In this document: positions 1 through 10,053 of the stretch, piece after piece | Layout: every line of letters begins with the position of its first letter | Numbering within the stretch: the stretch's first letter is position 1 | Virus record (IMG/VR): IMGVR_UViG_2648501466_000031 | Location: 1-15,157 of that record | Reading direction: 5' to 3' (one strand) | Origin: a virus | Taxonomy: Duplodnaviria > Heunggongvirae > Uroviricota > Caudoviricetes | Length of the DNA stretch: 15,157 nt | Notes under the pieces: generated by a model | Told to the model about the DNA's origin: nothing | The model's database searches: none | The model's input: the letters and a program-made list of their open reading frames with translations, nothing else | Position numbers and translations under genes: made by a program

Positions 1-117
1 ACTTTAGAATTTAACGATACTATAATTGAATCTCAGAAAGTCACAGGCAATAAGGCAAAGCATATTCTTGAGGATATAGAAAAATTCTATCGTAACAAAC
101 CCGATACTTATTATTAA
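1..117 (+). CDS. 3' end of an unidentified AT-rich ORF entering from the left edge (ends ...FYRNKPDTYY, stop TAA 115-117)
   Basis: Open frame from position 1 to TAA at 115-117, translated by hand; partial so absent from the ORF track; no recognisable motif. Confidence 0.25.
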   Translation, partial: TLEFNDTIIESQKVTGNKAKHILEDIEKFYRNKPDTYY

Positions 118-305
118 ATTTAATAATAGTTAGATGTGCAGAAATTATTACTCCACCCAAAAAAACAGGATAAGGAATTCCAGATAATTAGGATAAGCTT
201 AACAATAAAAGAACTAATAACGTTTATTATCTCTCACGTAGAACGATGGCATCAAAAAAATCATCTATAAAGAAAGAGTGAAAGCGACGACAGTTTAATT
301 TCACT

Positions 306-329
306 GCAGGCTGGGTAGCTCCAGCCTGC
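306..329. terminator. Perfect 9-bp stem-loop GCAGGCTGG-gtagct-CCAGCCTGC just 3' of tyrB; possible terminator
   Basis: Inverted repeat read directly; sits 10 bp downstream of the tyrB stop (339-341); no strong U-tract on the tyrB strand, hence low confidence. Confidence 0.3.
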
Positions 330-338
330 TTTCCTGCA

Positions 339-1532
339 TTACATCACCGCAGCAAACGCCTTTGCCACACGTTGTACATTTGCCGTATTTAACCCGGCGA
401 CACACATGCGACCGCTGGCGATGAGATAGACACCAAATTCTTCACGTAGTCGGTCAACCTGAGCGGCACTTAAACCGGTATAACTGAACATGCCGCGCTG
501 ATTAAGCAGATAATCGAAATTGCGTTCTGGCATCTCTGTGCTTAATACCTTCACCAGTTCCTGACGCATTGCCAGAATGCGAGTACGCATCTCTTCTACT
601 TCCGCCAGCCAGCTGGCTTTCAATGCCTCGTCATTCAGCACTGCAGCCACCACCTGCGCACCAAAATTCGGCGGGCTGGAGTAGTTGCGGCGAACTGTTG
701 CTTTCAATTGCCCCAGTACGCGGCCAGCGGCTTCGGCATCTTCACACAGAACAGAAAGTCCGCCGACGCGCTCGCCGTAAAGGGAGAAAATTTTCGAGAA
801 CGAATTGCTCACCAGAGCGGGTAATCCAGCGCTGGCAATGGCGCGAATAGCGTAGGCATCCTCTTCCATACCGGCACCAAATCCTTGATAGGCAATATCG
901 AGGAATGGAATAAGCTCGCGGGCTTTGAGAATTTCAATCACCGCATCCCACTGGTCATTAGTGAGATCGGCACCCGTTGGGTTGTGGCAACATGGATGCA
1001 GCAACACAATACTGCGGGCAGGTAATGTTTTCAGCGTCGCCAACAGGTCATTAAAGCGCACGCCGTTAGTCGCTTCGTCATACCAGGGGTAAGTACTCAC
1101 TTCGAATCCAGCCCCGGCGAATATTGCTACGTGGTTTTCCCAGGTAGGATCGCTGACCCAGACGCCTGATTCCGGGAAGTAGCGTTTCAGGAAATCCGCG
1201 CCCACTTTCAATGCCCCTGAGCCGCCAAGGGTTTGAATGGTTGCTACGCGCTGTTGTTGCAGTACTGGATGGTCCGCACCAAACAGCAGCGGCGCAATGG
1301 CATGGCGATAGCTGTTAAGCCCTTCCATCGGTAAATAAAGCGAAGCGCCATGAGGCTGCGCATTCAGGCGCGCTTCCGCCTCCGCCACGGCTTGCAGTTG
1401 TGGAATAATTCCGTCTTCGTTGTAGTACAGACCGATACTTAAATTCACTTTGTCGCTGCGAGGGTCTTCTTTAAAACGCTCCATAAGCGTAAGAATCGGG
1501 TCGCCAGCGTAGGCGTCAACTTTTTGAAACAC
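339..1532 (-). CDS. tyrB: Aromatic-amino-acid (tyrosine) aminotransferase, 397 aa
   Basis: Translation matches class I aminotransferase TyrB over its length ([19 protein letters not shown]-lysine region). The true start is the GTG at 1530-1532 (…[16 protein letters not shown]); the track ORF beginning at 1574 is an upstream in-frame extension. Confidence 0.93.
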
Positions 1533-2916: not shown

Positions 2917-4332
2917 TTATTCGTCGTCGTACTGCGGCCCCGCATAGTTGTCGAAGCGCGACCATTGACCGTTAAAGGTCAGGCGTACCGTCCCGATTGG
3001 GCCGTTACGTTGTTTACCGATAATAATTTCCGCGATGCCTTTTAAATCACTGTTTTCGTGATACACCTCATCACGATAGATAAACATGATCAAGTCCGCA
3101 TCCTGCTCGATAGAGCCAGATTCACGCAGGTCGGAGTTGACCGGGCGTTTGTCGGCACGTTGTTCCAGAGAACGGTTCAACTGGGACAGCGCCACCACCG
3201 GCACGTTCAGTTCTTTCGCCAGTGCTTTCAGCGAGCGGGAGATTTCTGCAATTTCCAGCGTACGGTTATCGGAAAGCGCCGGTACGCGCATCAGTTGCAG
3301 GTAGTCGATCATGATAAGCCCGATGCCGCCGTGTTCACGGGCAATACGGCGTGCGCGGGAACGCACTTCCGTTGGCGTCAGGCCGGAAGAGTCATCGATA
3401 TAGATATTGCGTTTTTCGAGCAAAATACCCATGGTGCCGGAAATGCGCGCCCAGTCTTCATCATCGAGCTGCCCGGTACGGATTTTAGTCTGGTCAACGC
3501 GCGACAGCGACGCCAGAGAACGCATCATAATCTGTTCTGAAGGCATCTCCAGCGAGAAGATAAGTACCGGTTTATCCTGCAACATCGCCGCGTTTTCGAC
3601 GAGGTTCATCGCAAATGTTGTTTTACCCATCGACGGACGCGCGGCGACGATGATCAAATCCGACGGCTGCAAGCCAGCGGTTTTTTTGTTGAGATCGTCA
3701 TAACCGGTGTTTACTCCGGTAACGCCATCGTGTGGCTGCTGAAACAACTGCTCAATACGCGCCACGGTTGCGTCGAGCACATCGGCGATGTTCTTCGGCC
3801 CTTCGTCTTTGTTTGCACGACTTTCGGCAATTTTAAAGACGCGGGATTCAGCAAGGTCCAGCAGATCTTCGCTGGTACGCCCCTGCGGATCAAAACCGGC
3901 TTCAGCAATCTCATTCGCAACCGAGATCATCTCACGGACAACGGCACGTTCACGCACGATGTCAGCATAAGCACTGATGTTCGCCGCACTTGGCGTATTT
4001 TTTGACAGCTCTGCCAGATAAGCAAAACCACCGACGCTATCGAGTTGCCCCTGGCGTTCCAGCGATTCCGCAAGAGTAATTAGATCGATAGGGCTACCGC
4101 TTTCCTGCAAACGCGCCATTTCAGTAAAGATATGACGGTGTGGGCGGGTGTAAAAATCGTCTGCTACCACACGCTCGGCTACATCATCCCAGCGTTCGTT
4201 ATCTAGCATTAAACCGCCCAACACCGACTGCTCCGCTTCGATCGAGTGCGGAGGCACTTTCAGCCCGGCAACTTGTGGATCGCGTTCGCGGGGTTCAGCC
4301 TGCTGTTTGTTGAAGGGTTTATTTCCTGCCAT
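2917..4332 (-). CDS. dnaB: Replicative DNA helicase DnaB, 471 aa
   Basis: Walker A GARPSMGKT, the DnaB N-terminal domain and a length of 471 aa; classic DnaB. Confidence 0.96.
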   Translation of the reverse strand: MAGNKPFNKQQAEPRERDPQVAGLKVPPHSIEAEQSVLGGLMLDNERWDDVAERVVADDFYTRPHRHIFTEMARLQESGSPIDLITLAESLERQGQLDSVGGFAYLAELSKNTPSAANISAYADIVRERAVVREMISVANEIAEAGFDPQGRTSEDLLDLAESRVFKIAESRANKDEGPKNIADVLDATVARIEQLFQQPHDGVTGVNTGYDDLNKKTAGLQPSDLIIVAARPSMGKTTFAMNLVENAAMLQDKPVLIFSLEMPSEQIMMRSLASLSRVDQTKIRTGQLDDEDWARISGTMGILLEKRNIYIDDSSGLTPTEVRSRARRIAREHGGIGLIMIDYLQLMRVPALSDNRTLEIAEISRSLKALAKELNVPVVALSQLNRSLEQRADKRPVNSDLRESGSIEQDADLIMFIYRDEVYHENSDLKGIAEIIIGKQRNGPIGTVRLTFNGQWSRFDNYAGPQYDDE

Positions 4333-4414
4333 AGTGAATGGAGTTACCGAGATAAAGAATGGGTCGAAACTTTACCATATGAAGCAGACCCTGACGATAC
4401 GTTCTGGAGGACAC

Positions 4415-5398
4415 ATGGCAACACGAATTGAATTTCACAAGCACGGTGGCCCGGAAGTACTTCAAGCCGTAGAGTTCACTCCTGCCGATCCGGCAGAGAA
4501 TGAAATCCAGGTCGAAAATAAAGCCATCGGCATCAATTTTATCGACACATATATCCGCAGCGGCCTTTACCCGCCGCCATCGCTACCCAGCGGATTAGGC
4601 ACCGAAGCAGCAGGCATCGTGAGTAAAGTCGGCAGTGGTGTAAAGCATATTAAGGCAGGCGATCGTGTAGTCTATGCGCAGTCGGCGTTAGGCGCTTACA
4701 GCTCTGTGCATAACATTATTGCGGATAAAGCGGCGATTCTGCCTGCGGCAATTTCTTTTGAGCAAGCTGCGGCATCCTTCCTGAAAGGCTTAACGGTTTA
4801 TTATCTGCTGCGCAAAACCTATGAAATTAAACCCGATGAGCAGTTCCTGTTCCACGCAGCAGCTGGCGGCGTTGGCTTGATTGCCTGCCAGTGGGCAAAA
4901 GCCCTGGGCGCGAAACTTATCGGCACCGTAGGAACCGCGCAAAAAGCGCAGAGCGCGCTAAAAGCGGGCGCGTGGCAGGTTATTAACTATCGTGAAGAGA
5001 ATCTGGTCGAGCGGTTAAAAGAGATCACCGGCGGTAAGAAAGTGCGCGTGGTGTACGATTCCGTGGGCAGAGACACCTGGGAACGGTCGCTGGATTGCCT
5101 GCAACGCCGCGGCTTAATGGTGAGTTTTGGCAACTCATCAGGTGCGGTTACCGGTGTGAACTTAGGCATTCTCAATCAGAAAGGCTCGTTGTATGTGACA
5201 CGCCCTTCCCTGCAAGGCTATATCACCACGCGGGAGGAATTAACCGAGGCCAGTAATGAACTGTTCTCTTTGATTGCCAGCGGTGTGATTAAGGTCGATG
5301 TCGCCGAGCAGCAGAAATATCCGCTGAAGGATGCGCAGCGTGCGCATGAAATTCTGGAAAGCCGGGCAACGCAAGGTTCCAGCCTGCTGATTCCATAA
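4415..5398 (+). CDS. qor: NADPH:quinone oxidoreductase (zeta-crystallin family), 327 aa
   Basis: MATRIEFHKHGGPEVLQ… MDR-family sequence with AAAGGVG NADPH motif; start ATG at 4415 preceded by GGAGGA 5 nt upstream; the track ORF from 4307 is an in-frame upstream extension. Confidence 0.9.
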   Translation: MATRIEFHKHGGPEVLQAVEFTPADPAENEIQVENKAIGINFIDTYIRSGLYPPPSLPSGLGTEAAGIVSKVGSGVKHIKAGDRVVYAQSALGAYSSVHNIIADKAAILPAAISFEQAAASFLKGLTVYYLLRKTYEIKPDEQFLFHAAAGGVGLIACQWAKALGAKLIGTVGTAQKAQSALKAGAWQVINYREENLVERLKEITGGKKVRVVYDSVGRDTWERSLDCLQRRGLMVSFGNSSGAVTGVNLGILNQKGSLYVTRPSLQGYITTREELTEASNELFSLIASGVIKVDVAEQQKYPLKDAQRAHEILESRATQGSSLLIP

Positions 5399-5939: not shown

Positions 5940-6977
5940 TTAACGCTTATCCGCCACCAGTTTGAGCGCGTGTTCCAGCACGTTAATGTCAGCACCCGCT
6001 TTATGGGCATTTTCACTTAAATAACGCCGCCACTGCCGCGCGCCAGGAATACCCTGGAACAAACCCAGCATATGCCGGGTAATATGGCCGAGATACGTCC
6101 CCTGGCTGAGTTCACGCTCAATGTACGGATACATGGCGCGCACTACCGCCACCGGATCGGCATCGGTATCCGAGGAACCAAAGATCTCCCGGTCTACCGC
6201 CGCCAGAATACCCGGATTCTGATACGCCTCGCGCCCGACCATCACGCCATCCATATGTTGCAGGTGTGCTTTGGCCTCTTCCAGCGACTTGATACCACCG
6301 TTAATCGACATTGTCAGATGCGGAAAGTCACGCTTCAGTTGATACACACGCGGATAATCGAGCGGCGGGATTTCACGGTTTTCTTTCGGGCTTAACCCCG
6401 AAAGCCAGGCTTTACGTGCGTGGATGATAAACATCTCACACTCGCCTTTGCCGGAAACAGTGTTGATGAAATCGCAGAGAAATTCATAGCTGTCCTGGTC
6501 ATCGATGCCAATACGCGTTTTCACCGTCACTGGAATCGACACCACATCGCGCATCGCTTTCACACAGTCGGCAACCAGCTGCGCATTACCCATCAGACAC
6601 GCACCAAACATGCCGTTCTGCACCCGGTCAGACGGGCAGCCGACATTCAGGTTGATCTCATCATATCCACGCGCTTCTGCCAGCTTCGCACACTGTGCCA
6701 GCGCCGCCGGATCGCTACCGCCGAGTTGCAACGCTACCGGATGTTCTTCTTCACTGTACGCCAGGTAATCACCTTTACCGTGAATAATCGCCCCTGTGGT
6801 CACCATTTCGGTATACAGCAACGTATTGCGGGAAAGCAGACGCAAGAAATAGCGGCAATGTCTGTCCGTCCAGTCGAGCATAGGAGCAATGCTAAACCGA
6901 GAATTCCAGTAAACACCAGTTTTTTCAGGCATCACGCTGGTTTGATTAATTTTTTGTGTTTCATGATTATCGTGCAT
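5940..6977 (-). CDS. dusA: tRNA-dihydrouridine synthase A, 345 aa as drawn; 5' end probably supplied by the adjacent prophage
   Basis: [17 protein letters not shown]… and the Dus catalytic region ([15 protein letters not shown]); the first ~12 codons (6941-6977) are ~24% GC versus ~45-55% for the rest; no Shine-Dalgarno seen at either M1 or M16, so the start is uncertain. Confidence 0.88.
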
Positions 6978-7010
6978 TTTTGAACATTTCAGGCTATTTT
7001 TCTCGCGTTA

Positions 7011-7046
7011 GGTTCCCGCACAGGTTCCCACGTTTTATGGGAACCC
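7011..7046. promoter_or_regulatory. GGTTCCC repeat cluster in the int 5' region: direct copy 7011-7017 plus inverted repeat GGTTCCCA-N7-TGGGAACC (7024-7046)
   Basis: Read directly; sits 20-55 nt upstream of the int ATG (7066) in the dusA-int divergent region; candidate operator or recombinase/RDF binding sites. Confidence 0.35.
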
Positions 7047-7065
7047 GAAATAACGAGGTCGTGTA

Positions 7066-8163
7066 ATGGCATACTATAACATAGAGAAACGACTAAAATC
7101 CGATGGCACACCACGCTATCGCTGTAATGTGATTATCAAAGAAAAAGGTGTTATCACTTACAGGGAAAGTAAAACATTCCCTAAACATGCTCATGCCAAA
7201 ACATGGGGCACACAGAAAGTGATGGAATTAGATCTATATGGCATTCCATCATCAAATGCAGTTGACGGACTTACAGTCCGTGACTTACTACACAAATATT
7301 TAAATGACCCAAATGCCGGAGGTAAAGCAGGCCGTACTAAAAGATATGTGCTGGAACTGCTTATGGATAGTGACGTCTCCGCGCTCAAACTATCTGAACT
7401 GACAGAAAATGACGTAATTGAACATTGCAGGCTAAGAAACAACGCTGGTGCAGGTCCAGCTACAGTTAGCCACGATGTTAGTTATCTTGGCAGTGTTCTG
7501 GATGCTGCCAAACCTGTATATGGAATTAATTACACATCAAACCCAGCAAAAGCCGCTCGTCCATATCTACTTAAACTTGGTTTAATTGGTAAATCAAATC
7601 GTCGTAATCGTAGACCGGCATCTGATGAACTGGACATGCTCATTGAAGGTCTTCAACAACGATCTACACATAAATGCTCAAAAATTCCGTTCGTTGATAT
7701 CCTCAAATTTTCTGTGTGGTCATGTATGCGAATCGGTGAAGTATGCCGATTACGATGGGAGGATCTCGATCAGGAACAAAAATCCATACTCGTAAGAGAC
7801 AGGAAAGATCCACGTAAAAAGGAAGGCAACCATATGAAAGTAGCCTTGCTTGGGGAAGCCTGGGATATCGTCCAACGACAACCCAAAAAATCAGAATTCA
7901 TTTTTCCATATAACAGCACTTCTGTTACTGCGGGATTCCAGAGGGTAAGAAGCAAATTAGGTATTAAAGATCTGCGATACCATGATTTGCGTAGAGAAGG
8001 GGCAAGTCGCTTATTTGAGGCTGGTTTTAGTATTGAGGAAGTCGCCCAGGTTACAGGGCATCGTTCATTAAACGTGCTATGGCAGGTATATACCGAACTG
8101 TATCCGAAATCTTTACATAATCGTTTTGAAGAGCTCCAAAGGAGCAGAAATAAGGCCTCTTGA
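7066..8163 (+). CDS. int: Phage tyrosine integrase (site-specific recombinase), likely dusA-associated integrase type, 365 aa
   Basis: Catalytic signature: box I R (CMRIGEVCRLRWEDL), HDLRR (H-x-x-R), GHRS, and tyrosine in WQVYTEL; position directly abutting and divergent from the dusA 5' end. Confidence 0.88.
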   Translation: MAYYNIEKRLKSDGTPRYRCNVIIKEKGVITYRESKTFPKHAHAKTWGTQKVMELDLYGIPSSNAVDGLTVRDLLHKYLNDPNAGGKAGRTKRYVLELLMDSDVSALKLSELTENDVIEHCRLRNNAGAGPATVSHDVSYLGSVLDAAKPVYGINYTSNPAKAARPYLLKLGLIGKSNRRNRRPASDELDMLIEGLQQRSTHKCSKIPFVDILKFSVWSCMRIGEVCRLRWEDLDQEQKSILVRDRKDPRKKEGNHMKVALLGEAWDIVQRQPKKSEFIFPYNSTSVTAGFQRVRSKLGIKDLRYHDLRREGASRLFEAGFSIEEVAQVTGHRSLNVLWQVYTELYPKSLHNRFEELQRSRNKAS

Positions 8164-8211
8164 CACTGTTTATCTATACAGTTAAAAATAATACTGTATA
8201 CAAACACAGTA
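8164..8211 (+). promoter_or_regulatory. Two tandem LexA (SOS) boxes upstream of the dinI-like gene
   Basis: Box 1 at 8164-8183 CACTGTttatctatACAGTT; box 2 at 8192-8211 TACTGTatacaaacACAGTA (perfect CTGT-N8-ACAG with TA flanks); RBS AGAGGGA and ATG at 8225 follow. Confidence 0.75.
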
Positions 8212-8224
8212 TAGAGGGACTTTT

Positions 8225-8473
8225 ATGCGTATTGAAATCTGCATAGCCAAAGAAAAAATGACTAAAATGCCAACCGGTGCTGTGGATGCGTTAAAGGAAG
8301 AATTAACCCGACGCATCAGTAAACGTTATGACGATGTAGAGGTGATCGTAAAAGCCACCAGCAACGATGGCCTTTCTGTTACACGCACCGCAGATAAGGA
8401 TTCTGCAAAAACTTTTGTTCAGGAGACTCTGAAAGATACCTGGGAATCTGCTGACGAGTGGTTTGTTCACTAA
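8225..8473 (+). CDS. dinI: DinI-family DNA-damage-inducible protein (RecA modulator), 82 aa
   Basis: [11 protein letters not shown]…[16 protein letters not shown]…LSV…[17 protein letters not shown] aligns along its length with E. coli DinI (MRIEVTIAK…GAIDAL…LQETWESADDWFV). Confidence 0.88.
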
Positions 8474-8652
8474 TTAACACGTAAAATCGGTAACGGCTGG
8501 AAATCATTCAATACTCGCACTATCGAAAGTTCGCCAGCCAGCCGTGGCACGTTCTTGCATACGACGTGCTACGGTTTCATTTATCTCCCGAAACTCCATT
8601 TGGATTTATCCGGTGCGCCGTAAAACCCCGTCCTTCAGGGCGTGGAGGATGT

Positions 8653-8736
8653 CAACTGGACGCACTGGAGCTGGTCGATACTTCCGGTGCGCCAGATATT
8701 GAATGGCCTACGCCTCCGGCAGTTCAGGCCAGATGA
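8653..8736 (+). pseudogene. Relic 3' end of a second, convergent tail-fibre-assembly gene (tfa-prime); only the C-terminal ~25 codons are recognisable
   Basis: Plus-strand frame at 8653-8733 reads QLDALELVDTSGAPDIEWPTPPAVQAR then TGA (8734-8736), matching the conserved Tfa C-terminal motif (VDTSTAPDIEWP); the upstream frame degenerates, with a stop at 8491; overlaps the minus-strand tfa 3' end by 29 bp. Confidence 0.45.
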
Positions 8737-9298
8737 CATCCGGCGCGGTGCTGGTATCTGTTGCCTGCACCGCCTTAATGTAGCCAATCCAGGCAATCAG
8801 GCTGGCTTTGTCATCGCCACTGATAATGCCTAACTGCAGTTCCGTTTGCCACAGGCTGATTTTTGAATTTGCGGCGTTCAGAAGATTTGTTTTCTGTTGC
8901 TCGGCTTCGGCCACGTTCGCCGAGTGCTGTTTATCGCTATCTGTAGCCCATTTGTCATATGGCGTAGATGGTGCTGTGGTGGTGGTGCCTTCCGGGTATT
9001 CTCCCAACCGTGAAACTGTCACATGCTTTCCAGTTTCCGTGCTGTAAACGGTTTCGCCGCGATGGTCTGCAACGTATTCCCAACCGGTCAAATCAGCCGT
9101 CCGGCAAACAGCAAAGCCGTCCTTTTTGCTGATTGGCGCATCCACGCACGAATTGCCTGGAACACCAACGCCAACGGGAAGATATTCAACAGCTAAACCG
9201 ATATATTCACGCGTCACGCCATCATAATTATAAACGGTGATATATCCGTCTTCCGTGGCGAAACCGTTTTCATCTAATGAAATTTCTTTTGCGGTCAT
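8708..9298 (-). CDS. tfa: Tail fibre assembly protein (Tfa / Mu U-like chaperone), 196 aa
   Basis: C-terminus …IAWIGYIKAVQATDTSTAPDVIWPELPEA is typical of the lambda Tfa / Mu U family; start overlaps the stop of the upstream fibre gene (TAATG). Confidence 0.85.
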   Translation of the reverse strand: MTAKEISLDENGFATEDGYITVYNYDGVTREYIGLAVEYLPVGVGVPGNSCVDAPISKKDGFAVCRTADLTGWEYVADHRGETVYSTETGKHVTVSRLGEYPEGTTTTAPSTPYDKWATDSDKQHSANVAEAEQQKTNLLNAANSKISLWQTELQLGIISGDDKASLIAWIGYIKAVQATDTSTAPDVIWPELPEA

Positions 9299-10053
9299 TA
9301 TACTGCCCTTACAATGTAGTTGAATGCGAGGTTGCGCGGGCGAGTTTCAGCACCTGTTGAACCATTCGCCTTTAAGTAAACCCAACCAGAGCCATTAAAA
9401 GTGGTTGCATTAATCATATATTTAATCGGAATCATGTCAGAGTCAGGGGTATCGCCCAGCCTGTCCCTGTAAGCGGTATCTGAACTGTATGCCATCGCTA
9501 GATCATGAGTATGCTGCTGTACTGATTGGCTCTGACCAGTTAAAACAACGCGCCCACTATCAACCCCGCGCCCATCATCCCAGCCACGGATAAATTCACC
9601 GCGCAAATCAGGCAATTTTAACGCTGGATAAACTTTTGCCAGCTCCGGGTATTCTTCAGCAGAAAAAGGCGCACCGTTGCATTTAATCCAGCCTGTTGGC
9701 GGTGTGGCTGAAGGCCACGGAACAGGTACACCAACGGGTAACGCTGAGCCTTCTCCCAAACCAAGGTTTTCGAGAGCCGTTTGCACAGTGCCATCCGATT
9801 TGATATCGCCAAACGGATTCTTGCGGCTTAACAGCAGCGCACGAAGTGCGGTAAGCAGCTGGTCATGCCGCCCTTTCTCCAGGCTGGCACCGGAGGCCTC
9901 CACCACGCTACAAAGTTCTTCCTGCAACATGTCAAAGTAGTCATCATCCAGATCGGTGGCAGGTGTGCCGGTCTGGGGGTTACCACGGGTAAAACCGTTC
10001 TTACCCGCGCCGAACTTATCCTTCTGCGCGGTTTTCGTGTCTATACGATGCAT
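9298..10053 (-). CDS. Short tail fibre protein with phage tail-collar domain (Mu S-like), 251 aa
   Basis: N-terminal fibre-anchor region followed by a collar-type motif ([22 protein letters not shown]…[17 protein letters not shown]); positioned between the gp48-like gene and tfa. Confidence 0.78.

Follow-up and report, generated by a model that had tools for sequence, protein, structure and literature searches.

Mobile elements with DusA-associated integrases insert in dusA's 5' end and provide the gene with a new 5' end, the old one being left at the far boundary of the element and the att repeats being semiconserved (Farrugia 2015, PMC4482086). The experiments in that study were carried out in Acinetobacter and Pseudomonas, and mEp460 was named among the bacteriophage genomes encoding homologues of these integrases. 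Phage 1720a-02 (Phi-stx2dact), an Stx2 lambdoid phage studied in Citrobacter rodentium, integrates 100 bp into dusA, has a short core of 7 bases common to its attL, attR, attB and attP, and carries an ORF, 'Phi-dusA', that shares the reading frame of dusA nucleotides 101-1038; experiments showed that the phage excises from and integrates at the dusA site in an integrase-dependent manner, and promoter and start-codon usage were not addressed (Balasubramanian 2019, PMC6328086). In Vibrio cholerae, IMEVchUSA3 was found by lacZ fusion to give dusA a new promoter and a new N-terminus, the latter described as "of identical length" and having 61% identity over 35 aa to K-12 DusA, and dusA was still expressed with IMEVchUSA3, at a somewhat reduced level (Durand 2021, PMC8409611). 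A further element, cited in PMC8409611, also gives a translation-related host gene another promoter and N-terminus on integration, but its target gene and integrase family are not those of the present case, and it is an element of another type. A 2026 paper on DusA (PMC13136901) summarises such replacement as accepted knowledge. That integrating elements exchange the promoter and 5' end of dusA is therefore already known; it has been in print since 2015, and since 2019 in the case of a phage with 99.5% identity, in its int/attP region, to the one described below.

The window examined here, meaning the whole stretch of DNA analysed, is 15,157 nucleotides of Caudoviricetes sequence (IMG/VR record IMGVR_UViG_2648501466_000031), and its features at and around dusA are shown in Table 1. 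It very probably contains the attL junction left where a prophage entered dusA, near the start of the gene, by way of a DusA-associated integrase. The integrase matches Pfam PF00589 over residues 189-346, as a tyrosine recombinase should, and its translation shows the motifs MRIGE, HDLRRE and GHRS and a C-terminal VY, which would hold the catalytic residues. As in the elements described in 2015 (PMC4482086), the integrase gene and dusA are divergent neighbours that meet at their 5' ends, the two ATG codons (7066, plus strand, and 6977, minus strand) being separated by an 88-bp gap. The integrase is 97.5% identical at the amino acid level to mEp460 Int and 54-71% identical to dusA-adjacent integrases of Mixta, Pectobacterium, Morganella and Xenorhabdus, and the gene order of int followed by a DinI-like gene also occurs in mEp460 and SKA5. 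The closest phage match to the segment comprising int and the attP arm (6882-8170) is 1720a-02, at 99.5% identity, and both elements lie about 100 bp into dusA and supply an in-frame phage dusA ORF. The two differ in host and in type, 1720a-02 being the Stx2 lambdoid phage of the C. rodentium work, whereas the window has an E. coli host and carries Mu/P2-like tail and baseplate genes.

Table 1 Features of the dusA junction region in the window
Feature	Position	Strand	Remarks
dusA ORF	5940-6977	minus	345 aa; M1 at 6977, M16 at 6932
Host-derived dusA, codons 36-345 and stop	5940..6873	minus	Identical or near-identical to prophage-free BL21 and ZJ3920 past the core
Semiconserved att sequence TCCAGTCGAGCATAGGAGC	6869-6887	minus	Contains the core; fits attB TCCAGTCGAGCATGGGAGC of C. 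rodentium (PMC6328086)
Crossover core ATGCTCGA (plus strand TCGAGCAT), codons M33-L34-D35	6874..6881	minus	Only block identical in attP, attL, attR and attB
Phage-supplied dusA leader, codons 1-32	6882..6977	minus	attP-arm identity
AT-rich patch, codons 1-12 and base 1 of codon 13	6941-6977	minus	24% GC
Phage intergenic region, dusA M1 to int start; putative dusA 5' UTR and int promoter region	6978..7065	.	88 bp; continuous with the leader in attP
Three GGGAACC repeats, candidate arm-type integrase sites	7011-7017 (-), 7023-7029 (-), 7039-7045 (+)		Repeat layout conserved
Extended -10-like box TGTTATAGT, candidate dusA promoter	7073..7081	minus	Overlaps int codons 3-6 on the opposite strand
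DusA-associated tyrosine integrase, divergent from dusA	7066..8163	plus	365 aa; Pfam Phage_integrase, E = 1.1e-20
DinI-like gene, prophage cargo downstream of int	8225..8473	plus	Pfam DinI, E = 1.1e-19

The junction was located by aligning five att sequences, namely attP of mEp460 and of SKA5, attL of the window, attR of the sibling lysogen CFSAN061769 and attB of BL21. The block ATGCTCGA is common to all five, and the flanks change partner on each side of it: on the start-codon side of the core attL is like the phage and attR like the host, and on the gene-body side attL is like the host and attR like the phage. attL is accordingly composed of attP-left and attB-right, and attR of attB-left and attP-right. 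Past the core a partial identity, GG.A.G.AC, is retained in attL and attR, as in the semiconserved att repeats of DusA-associated integrases. Eighteen of the 19 positions of 6869-6887 match the published attB TCCAGTCGAGCATGGGAGC (PMC6328086), where the core was given as 7 bases; 8 identical bases are found here against the E. coli attB. With the crossover at 6874-6881, the phage contributes codons 1-32 (6882-6977) and all DNA upstream of them. In attP of the free phages mEp460 and SKA5 the equivalent 96-nt leader is followed by the core and then by phage-specific sequence, and leader and core lie contiguously in mid-genome in both of these phages, which were deposited as complete genomes. Leader and core are present in the attP of 1720a-02 as well. 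The leader in the window is 100% identical to the SKA5 attP arm, 92.7% identical to mEp460 and 81.2% identical to the BL21 host allele. The element has thus supplied an in-frame replacement 5' end, codons 1-32 being those of the SKA5 attP arm and the 345-aa ORF remaining intact. The sequence-only reading had proposed a phage-supplied N-terminus of about 12-27 residues and a phage-supplied dusA promoter; the attP match bears out the foreign origin and extends it to 32 codons, and the comparison of attP, attL, attR and attB assigns the whole of the promoter region to the phage.

The distribution of this junction in E. coli was determined by a megablast search of positions 6700-7065 against 5426 complete genomes, after which one example of each class was aligned. 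The E. coli dusA 5' ends fall into three classes, comprising full-length matches with the junction present (742/5426), genomes that align at 6700-6980 only with about 93% identity (most of the 5426), and genomes that align at 6700-6890 only (about one fifth). The sibling lysogen CFSAN061769, in which attR was read, is 100% identical to the window over 6700-7065 and 98-99% identical over the aligning segments, and its prophage is about 39 kb long. No complete genome was found that contains the whole window contiguously, and the best matches cover 76% of it because a tail-fibre segment differs. At the far prophage end of CFSAN061769, beside yjbM/zur, lies a 105-bp dusA 5' pseudogene annotated "tRNA-dihydrouridine synthase" (L004, 39060-39164), with a sequence identical to that of the BL21 leader. 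In this sibling the far boundary of the prophage is therefore marked by the old dusA 5' end, as reported for the elements of PMC4482086; the window itself ends inside the prophage. A PrtN-family gene is located at the attR end of the sibling lysogen, and IMEVchUSA3 has a PrtN-like RDF across attP from int. IMEVchUSA3 also resembles the present element in replacing the dusA promoter and N-terminus, and differs in being an SGI1-like mobilizable island, dependent on IncC plasmids and not a phage, with other cargo and other regulation (AcaCD). Where a prophage of this kind has a 105-bp "tRNA-dihydrouridine synthase" pseudogene at its far end, the pseudogene is to be regarded as an attR relic.

The first codons of the fused gene are unusual in composition. 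The patch at 6941-6977, TTTGATTAATTTTTTGTGTTTCATGATTATCGTGCAT, has 9 G+C in 37 nt (24.3%), the next 40 nt (6901-6940) have 18 (45%), and the dusA body (5940-6900) has 54% GC, which bears out the composition noted from the letters alone, and both candidate starts, M1 and M16, lie where they had been placed. Stretches of 37 nt with no more than 9 G+C make up 1.06% of the positions in the window and are nearly all intergenic, and the only one within dusA is that starting at 6941, so that the patch is unusual as coding sequence. A clear Shine-Dalgarno sequence had been reported as lacking at both candidate starts, and the best anti-Shine-Dalgarno duplexes in the 20 nt upstream agree with this (+0.4 kcal/mol for M1 and 0.0 kcal/mol for M16), compared with -6.6 kcal/mol for the adjacent integrase and -4 to -10 kcal/mol for most phage genes in the window.

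Leaders of dusA were then compared across genera in a scan of one genome per species, in which the 5' ends were sorted by type. Native Enterobacteriaceae leaders have 18-19 codons, for example MSSESQTTFPAHRFSIAP, and about 50% GC. Element-type leaders have 32 codons (29 in two cases), begin with MH[EQDG]N or MYEN, and adjoin intact integrases in Mixta, Pectobacterium, Morganella and Xenorhabdus. The MHxN start at a fixed distance of 32 (or 29) codons recurs in these four genera and in Yersinia, several of these leaders being without an internal Met, and in 17 of the 18 element-type leaders GC content is lower over the first 36 nt than over the remainder. The RNA around M1 is predicted to be almost free of structure: for 40-nt windows that start from -33 to +2 of M1, and so span -33..+41, the folding energies are 0 to -0.7 kcal/mol, the mean over the whole transcript region folded being -7.7 +/- 3.9 kcal/mol, and in 17 element-type leaders the mean for -20..+20 around M1 is -0.6 kcal/mol, against -7.6 kcal/mol in the gene body. 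Native dusA alleles also have little structure at their own start codon, to a less extreme degree (-2.3 kcal/mol), and low structure near the start codon is a general property and not specific to elements. The Pfam Dus domain covers DusA residues 30-340, and the solved Thermus thermophilus Dus starts 3 residues before the RLSVAPM motif and strand, leaving residues 1-25 without a counterpart; these residues are therefore taken to extend beyond the catalytic fold. The best reading of the AT-rich patch is an initiation zone that lacks a Shine-Dalgarno sequence and RNA structure and encodes a dispensable hydrophilic tail, with M1 as the likely start codon on the strength of the fixed leader length, the open frame and the missing internal Met in several genera.

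The intergenic architecture upstream of M1 is conserved across genera, element-type loci having first the int start, then an inverted and two direct copies of a short repeat, and after these an A-rich box and AAATGCACGAAAATA. The repeat sequence varies with the integrase lineage (GGGGTGC, GGTGTCC, GGTGTAC) and the three-repeat layout is constant. In the whole window GGGAACC occurs five times against 1.7 expected, a count reached in 9 of 200 shuffles, and mEp460 has one more copy on the other attP arm; the repeats may be arm-type Int sites. Of 83 loci, 51 have a 12-mer, T[AG]TG[CT]TATAGTA, upstream of dusA; its background rate is 0.013 per 260 nt. The 12-mer has the form of an extended -10-like element (TGnTATAGT). 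In native Enterobacteriaceae it lies about 50 nt upstream of the native dusA start and is followed by a GC-rich discriminator, and in element-type loci it lies across the initial codons of int, on the opposite strand. By its extended -10 match and its conservation, the box TGTTATAGT is the best candidate for a phage-supplied dusA promoter, from which an 88-nt dusA 5' UTR would run through the repeats. A scan of 6700-7300 for sigma-70 -35/-10 promoters and terminators gave no matches, so that no canonical -35/-10 promoter can be claimed; an extended -10 candidate would explain the empty scan. The Rfam scan of 6700-7300 gave a single sub-threshold miRNA match (23 bits, gathering score 53), which was taken as chance, and folding of the putative 5' UTR (6930-7066, minus strand) gave a hairpin of GGGUUCCCA and UGGGAACC with a z-score of only -1.44, from which no structured RNA is claimed.

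The AT-rich codons and the upstream sequence had been expected to be missing from prophage-free strains. In those of K-12/BL21 type homologous codons are in fact present, at 81.2% identity over the 96 nt, and the upstream DNA is not alike: a global alignment of the 88-bp intergenic region with BL21 upstream DNA scored 0.5, which is not significant against shuffles of -7.9 +/- 3.9 (maximum 4.5), and at the BL21 locus the leader alone resembles the phages. The comparison with prophage-free strains is, however, confounded because the K-12/BL21-type allele has itself the look of an earlier element's fossil. The BL21/K-12-type leader, MHGNSEMQKINQTSAMPEKTDVHWSGRFSVAP, has 32 codons and an MHGN start. 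After it, in BL21, comes a 1.7-kb block with a GC content of 27-41%, that of the flanks being 50-58%; the block extends from the att core as far as the zur upstream region and takes the place of 133 bp of the short-leader allele. A short leader directly beside zur is found in 1,123 of the 5,426 E. coli genomes (21%), including the type strain ATCC 11775, and the K-12-type sequence in 4,265 of the 5,426 (79%), either as the functional 5' end or as a lysogen attR relic. In other genera, element-type leaders occur beside truncated integrase remnants (L075, L077) or with no detectable integrase (Kosakonia L025/L032, Erwinia L045, L058, L063, L071, L074); in BL21 upstream DNA no integrase remnant was found by tblastn (E <= 1e-5).

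The K-12/BL21-type dusA start is thus probably the fossil attL of an ancient dusA-specific element. The fossil would comprise the MHGN 32-codon leader, the promoter region and the adjacent low-GC yjbM block, integrase and attR having been lost, and present-day phages would be integrating into it. The native allele appears to be the 18-codon leader beside zur, without AT-rich codons, which also occurs in other Enterobacteriaceae. A linked reading, of which the fossil attL forms one half and which taken as a whole is likewise probable, is that dusA-specific elements of Enterobacterales carry a near-exact copy of the native extended -10 box (TGCTATAGT), placed over the first int codons on the opposite strand, and so would imitate both the promoter and the coding start of the interrupted gene. 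The box in BL21, TTATGGTATAGTA, had been considered as a sign of an int relic in K-12; this was dropped on finding the box also upstream of native short-leader alleles, and it is a promoter-like box and not an int relic. PMC8409611 takes the K-12-type dusA 5' end as native, and a search of the accessible literature found no statement that the K-12 dusA 5' end is element-derived, which does not prove that none exists. Nothing is said in PMC4482086 of fossil alleles that lack an integrase, of the MHxN 32-codon leaders as a signature in Enterobacterales or of the shared promoter box, and the fossil status of the K-12 allele and the copied promoter box are considered modestly new.

Two other accounts of where the AT-rich codons come from were weighed. 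One takes the GC step near 6941 as the phage/host joint itself, with only about 12-27 residues foreign, and is invited by the sharp local fall from 45% to 24% GC within an ORF that adjoins an integrase. It retains almost no probability. The attP sequences of the phages run unbroken across ~6941 down to 6882, the exchange between host and phage occurs only at 6874-6881, and the step, some 60 nt inside phage DNA, recurs as the same GC gradient in 17 of the 18 element-type leaders, some of them in alleles without an upstream integrase. Because it lies wholly within phage DNA and recurs in other element-type leaders, the step is not a joint, and the alignment of attP, attL, attR and attB refutes it as the site of recombination; in annotation the prophage boundary belongs at 6874-6881. 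The sequence-only reading was right in kind in its central idea of a chimeric, phage-supplied start, which was already known, and it misplaced the junction and misread the GC step. The other account reverses the direction of transfer, making the K-12-type leader ancestral, the phage leader a copy of it and the AT-rich codons native. The presence of the K-12-type leader in 79% of complete E. coli genomes, its 81% identity to the phage leader and its treatment as native in PMC8409611 would fit this order of events, which is nevertheless improbable. Leaders of the MHxN 32-codon type accompany integrases in genera far removed from E. coli, and in L075 and L077 such a leader is paired with truncated integrase remnants; other Enterobacteriaceae and 21% of E. 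coli, the type strain among them, have the 18-19-codon leader with the conserved promoter box; and the 27-41% GC block of BL21 is bounded by the att core and the zur upstream region, in exchange for 133 bp of the short-leader allele.

The remaining alternatives concern what the patch does. If the real start were M16, at the native Enterobacteriaceae position, 6941-6977 would be untranslated 5' UTR or promoter DNA whose frame is open by chance. Native leaders (ZJ3920, Enterobacter, Klebsiella and others) do begin at the M16 equivalent, for example MPAESHTVYPAYRFSIAP, M16 is kept in E. coli phage, K-12 and Kosakonia leaders, and in the fossil leader of Kosakonia oryziphila AAG replaces ATG at M1; the substitutions between the window and BL21 leaders fall 4/7/7 by codon position, without enrichment at third positions, and codons 3-4 (GATAAT, GAAAAT, CAAAAT) look like -10 hexamers. 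Set against this, every element-type locus keeps an uninterrupted frame from MHxN as far as the core, frequently with a stop immediately upstream, the leader length is constant at 32 codons across genera, most leaders outside the Enterobacteriaceae have no Met near position 16, and the structure-free zone centres on M1, 40-nt windows at M16 already folding at -4 to -9 kcal/mol; M16 also has no Shine-Dalgarno sequence. An untranslated patch is for these reasons unlikely. M16 could still serve instead of or alongside M1, since it aligns with the native start, is kept in E. coli and Kosakonia leaders, and M1 has been lost in one Kosakonia fossil. Somewhat less likely again is that the tract is chiefly architectural attP DNA, a site of bending by IHF or Fis or of RDF binding, with coding as a secondary matter. 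The tract is 60-100 bp away from the core, on the way to the three GGGAACC repeats, which would suit such a role, as would its A-tract with AATCAA behind it (matching the WATCAA half of the IHF consensus) and the conservation of ATGCACGAAAAT across genera at the nucleotide level. A full match to the IHF consensus WATCAANNNNTTR was, however, found on neither strand of any of 15 leaders, and the WATCAA half is present in only 4 of the 15, at differing positions.

Under the preferred reading, in which the patch is the initiation zone of a phage-supplied leader, the phage attP carries, beside int, a ready substitute for the stretch of dusA lost on integration. This substitute consists of a putative promoter region, a start without a Shine-Dalgarno sequence and predicted to be unstructured, and the 32-codon leader ending in RFSIAP, followed by the core ATGCTCGA. 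Recombination in the core at 6874-6881 fuses the leader in frame to host codon 36 onward and rebuilds a 345-aa DusA, the original host 5' end being moved about 39 kb off to attR, and the A/T-rich codons would keep the mRNA near M1 unstructured and so offset the absent Shine-Dalgarno sequence. Altered DusA expression in this lysogen is plausible; it was shown for IMEVchUSA3, another dusA-specific element (PMC8409611).

The phage-supplied dusA start adds little in itself, and the side results could matter more. If the K-12-type allele is a fossil, about 79% of E. coli would make DusA from a start derived from a mobile element, and "native" K-12 baselines, including those of the lacZ fusions in PMC8409611 and of biochemistry on the 345-aa DusA, would compare two element-derived alleles. 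The short native allele, the K-12 fossil and the current phage alleles would then form a natural series with which to ask whether elements tune tRNA dihydrouridine levels.

A further observation concerns ATGCACGAAAAT, the nucleotide sequence of which is conserved beyond the needs of the peptide and hints at an extra role at the DNA or RNA level.

The dusA leaders of the element type begin with the codons ATGCAC-GAA/GAT/CAA-AAT (M-H-x-N; window 6966-6977), and these occupy the same position in the element-type loci of other genera (L053-L077). Even between distant genera the conservation extends to the nucleotide sequence of these codons. The second codon, for His, reads CAC in 13 of the 15 aligned leaders, CAT in L045 and TAC (Tyr) in L057. 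Judged from these alignments, this is more nucleotide conservation than a dispensable peptide would need. Kosakonia oryziphila (L032) has a leader of the element-derived type at a locus without an integrase, and the ATG of the start candidate M1, 96 nt upstream of the ATG codon of MLDW at the crossover core, has become AAG; in-frame Met codons follow the lost M1 at leader positions 7 and 16. The AAG codon suggests that M1 is dispensable after decay of the element.

An M-H-x-N leader is also carried by Escherichia coli BL21, in which a 32-codon MHGN... dusA leader and a 1.7-kb yjbM-bearing block of 27-41 % GC (3183-4913 of the BL21 locus) take the place of 133 bp of the short-leader allele (3191-3323 of the ZJ3920 locus). 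The low-GC block is limited by the att core at one end and by the zur upstream region at the other, and the BL21-type leader and yjbM block together look like a decayed dusA-specific element. Sequence of the K-12/BL21 type, present either as the functional 5' end or as the attR relic of lysogens, was found in 4,265 of 5,426 E. coli genomes, and the short dusA allele in 1,123 of the 5,426.

An extended -10-like box is common to native Enterobacteriaceae dusA upstream regions and element-type loci. In the native loci (L007-L038) it precedes the ATG of MLDW by approximately 101-112 nt, and in the element-type loci it lies across int codons 3-6, on the strand opposite to int. The dusA-specific elements appear to copy the box, a putative promoter, of the host dusA. 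The attP region also contains GGGAACC repeats, with a fourth copy on the other attP arm (1431-1439 of phage mEp460), and in other genera equivalent repeats keep the layout, while their sequence varies with the integrase lineage. Such a pattern would be expected of arm-type Int sites, for which the repeats are candidates.

Features of the dusA-int junction and of the attR end
Feature	Position	Strand	Context
Three GGGAACC repeats	window 7011-7017, 7023-7029, 7039-7045		between dusA and int
Extended -10-like box TG[CT]TATAGT	window 7073-7081	-	upstream of dusA
PrtN-family gene	CFSAN061769 (sibling lysogen) 37276-37557; mEp460 86-394		just inside attR end; outside window

In CFSAN061769 and mEp460 the PrtN-family gene sits opposite int across attP, and it occupies the position described for the dusA-specific excision factor RdfN (PMC8409611). 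The tail-fibre region (window 8579-9751) is unlike that of sibling prophages, where this position holds a DNA invertase (recombinase family protein) together with alternative segments for the tail fibre or assembly, and its arrangement was found as one contiguous stretch in no complete E. coli genome of the collection searched. The left edge (window 1-300) is a stretch of 29 % GC; its counterpart in a sibling genome is a hypothetical gene that lies between aphA and tyrB.
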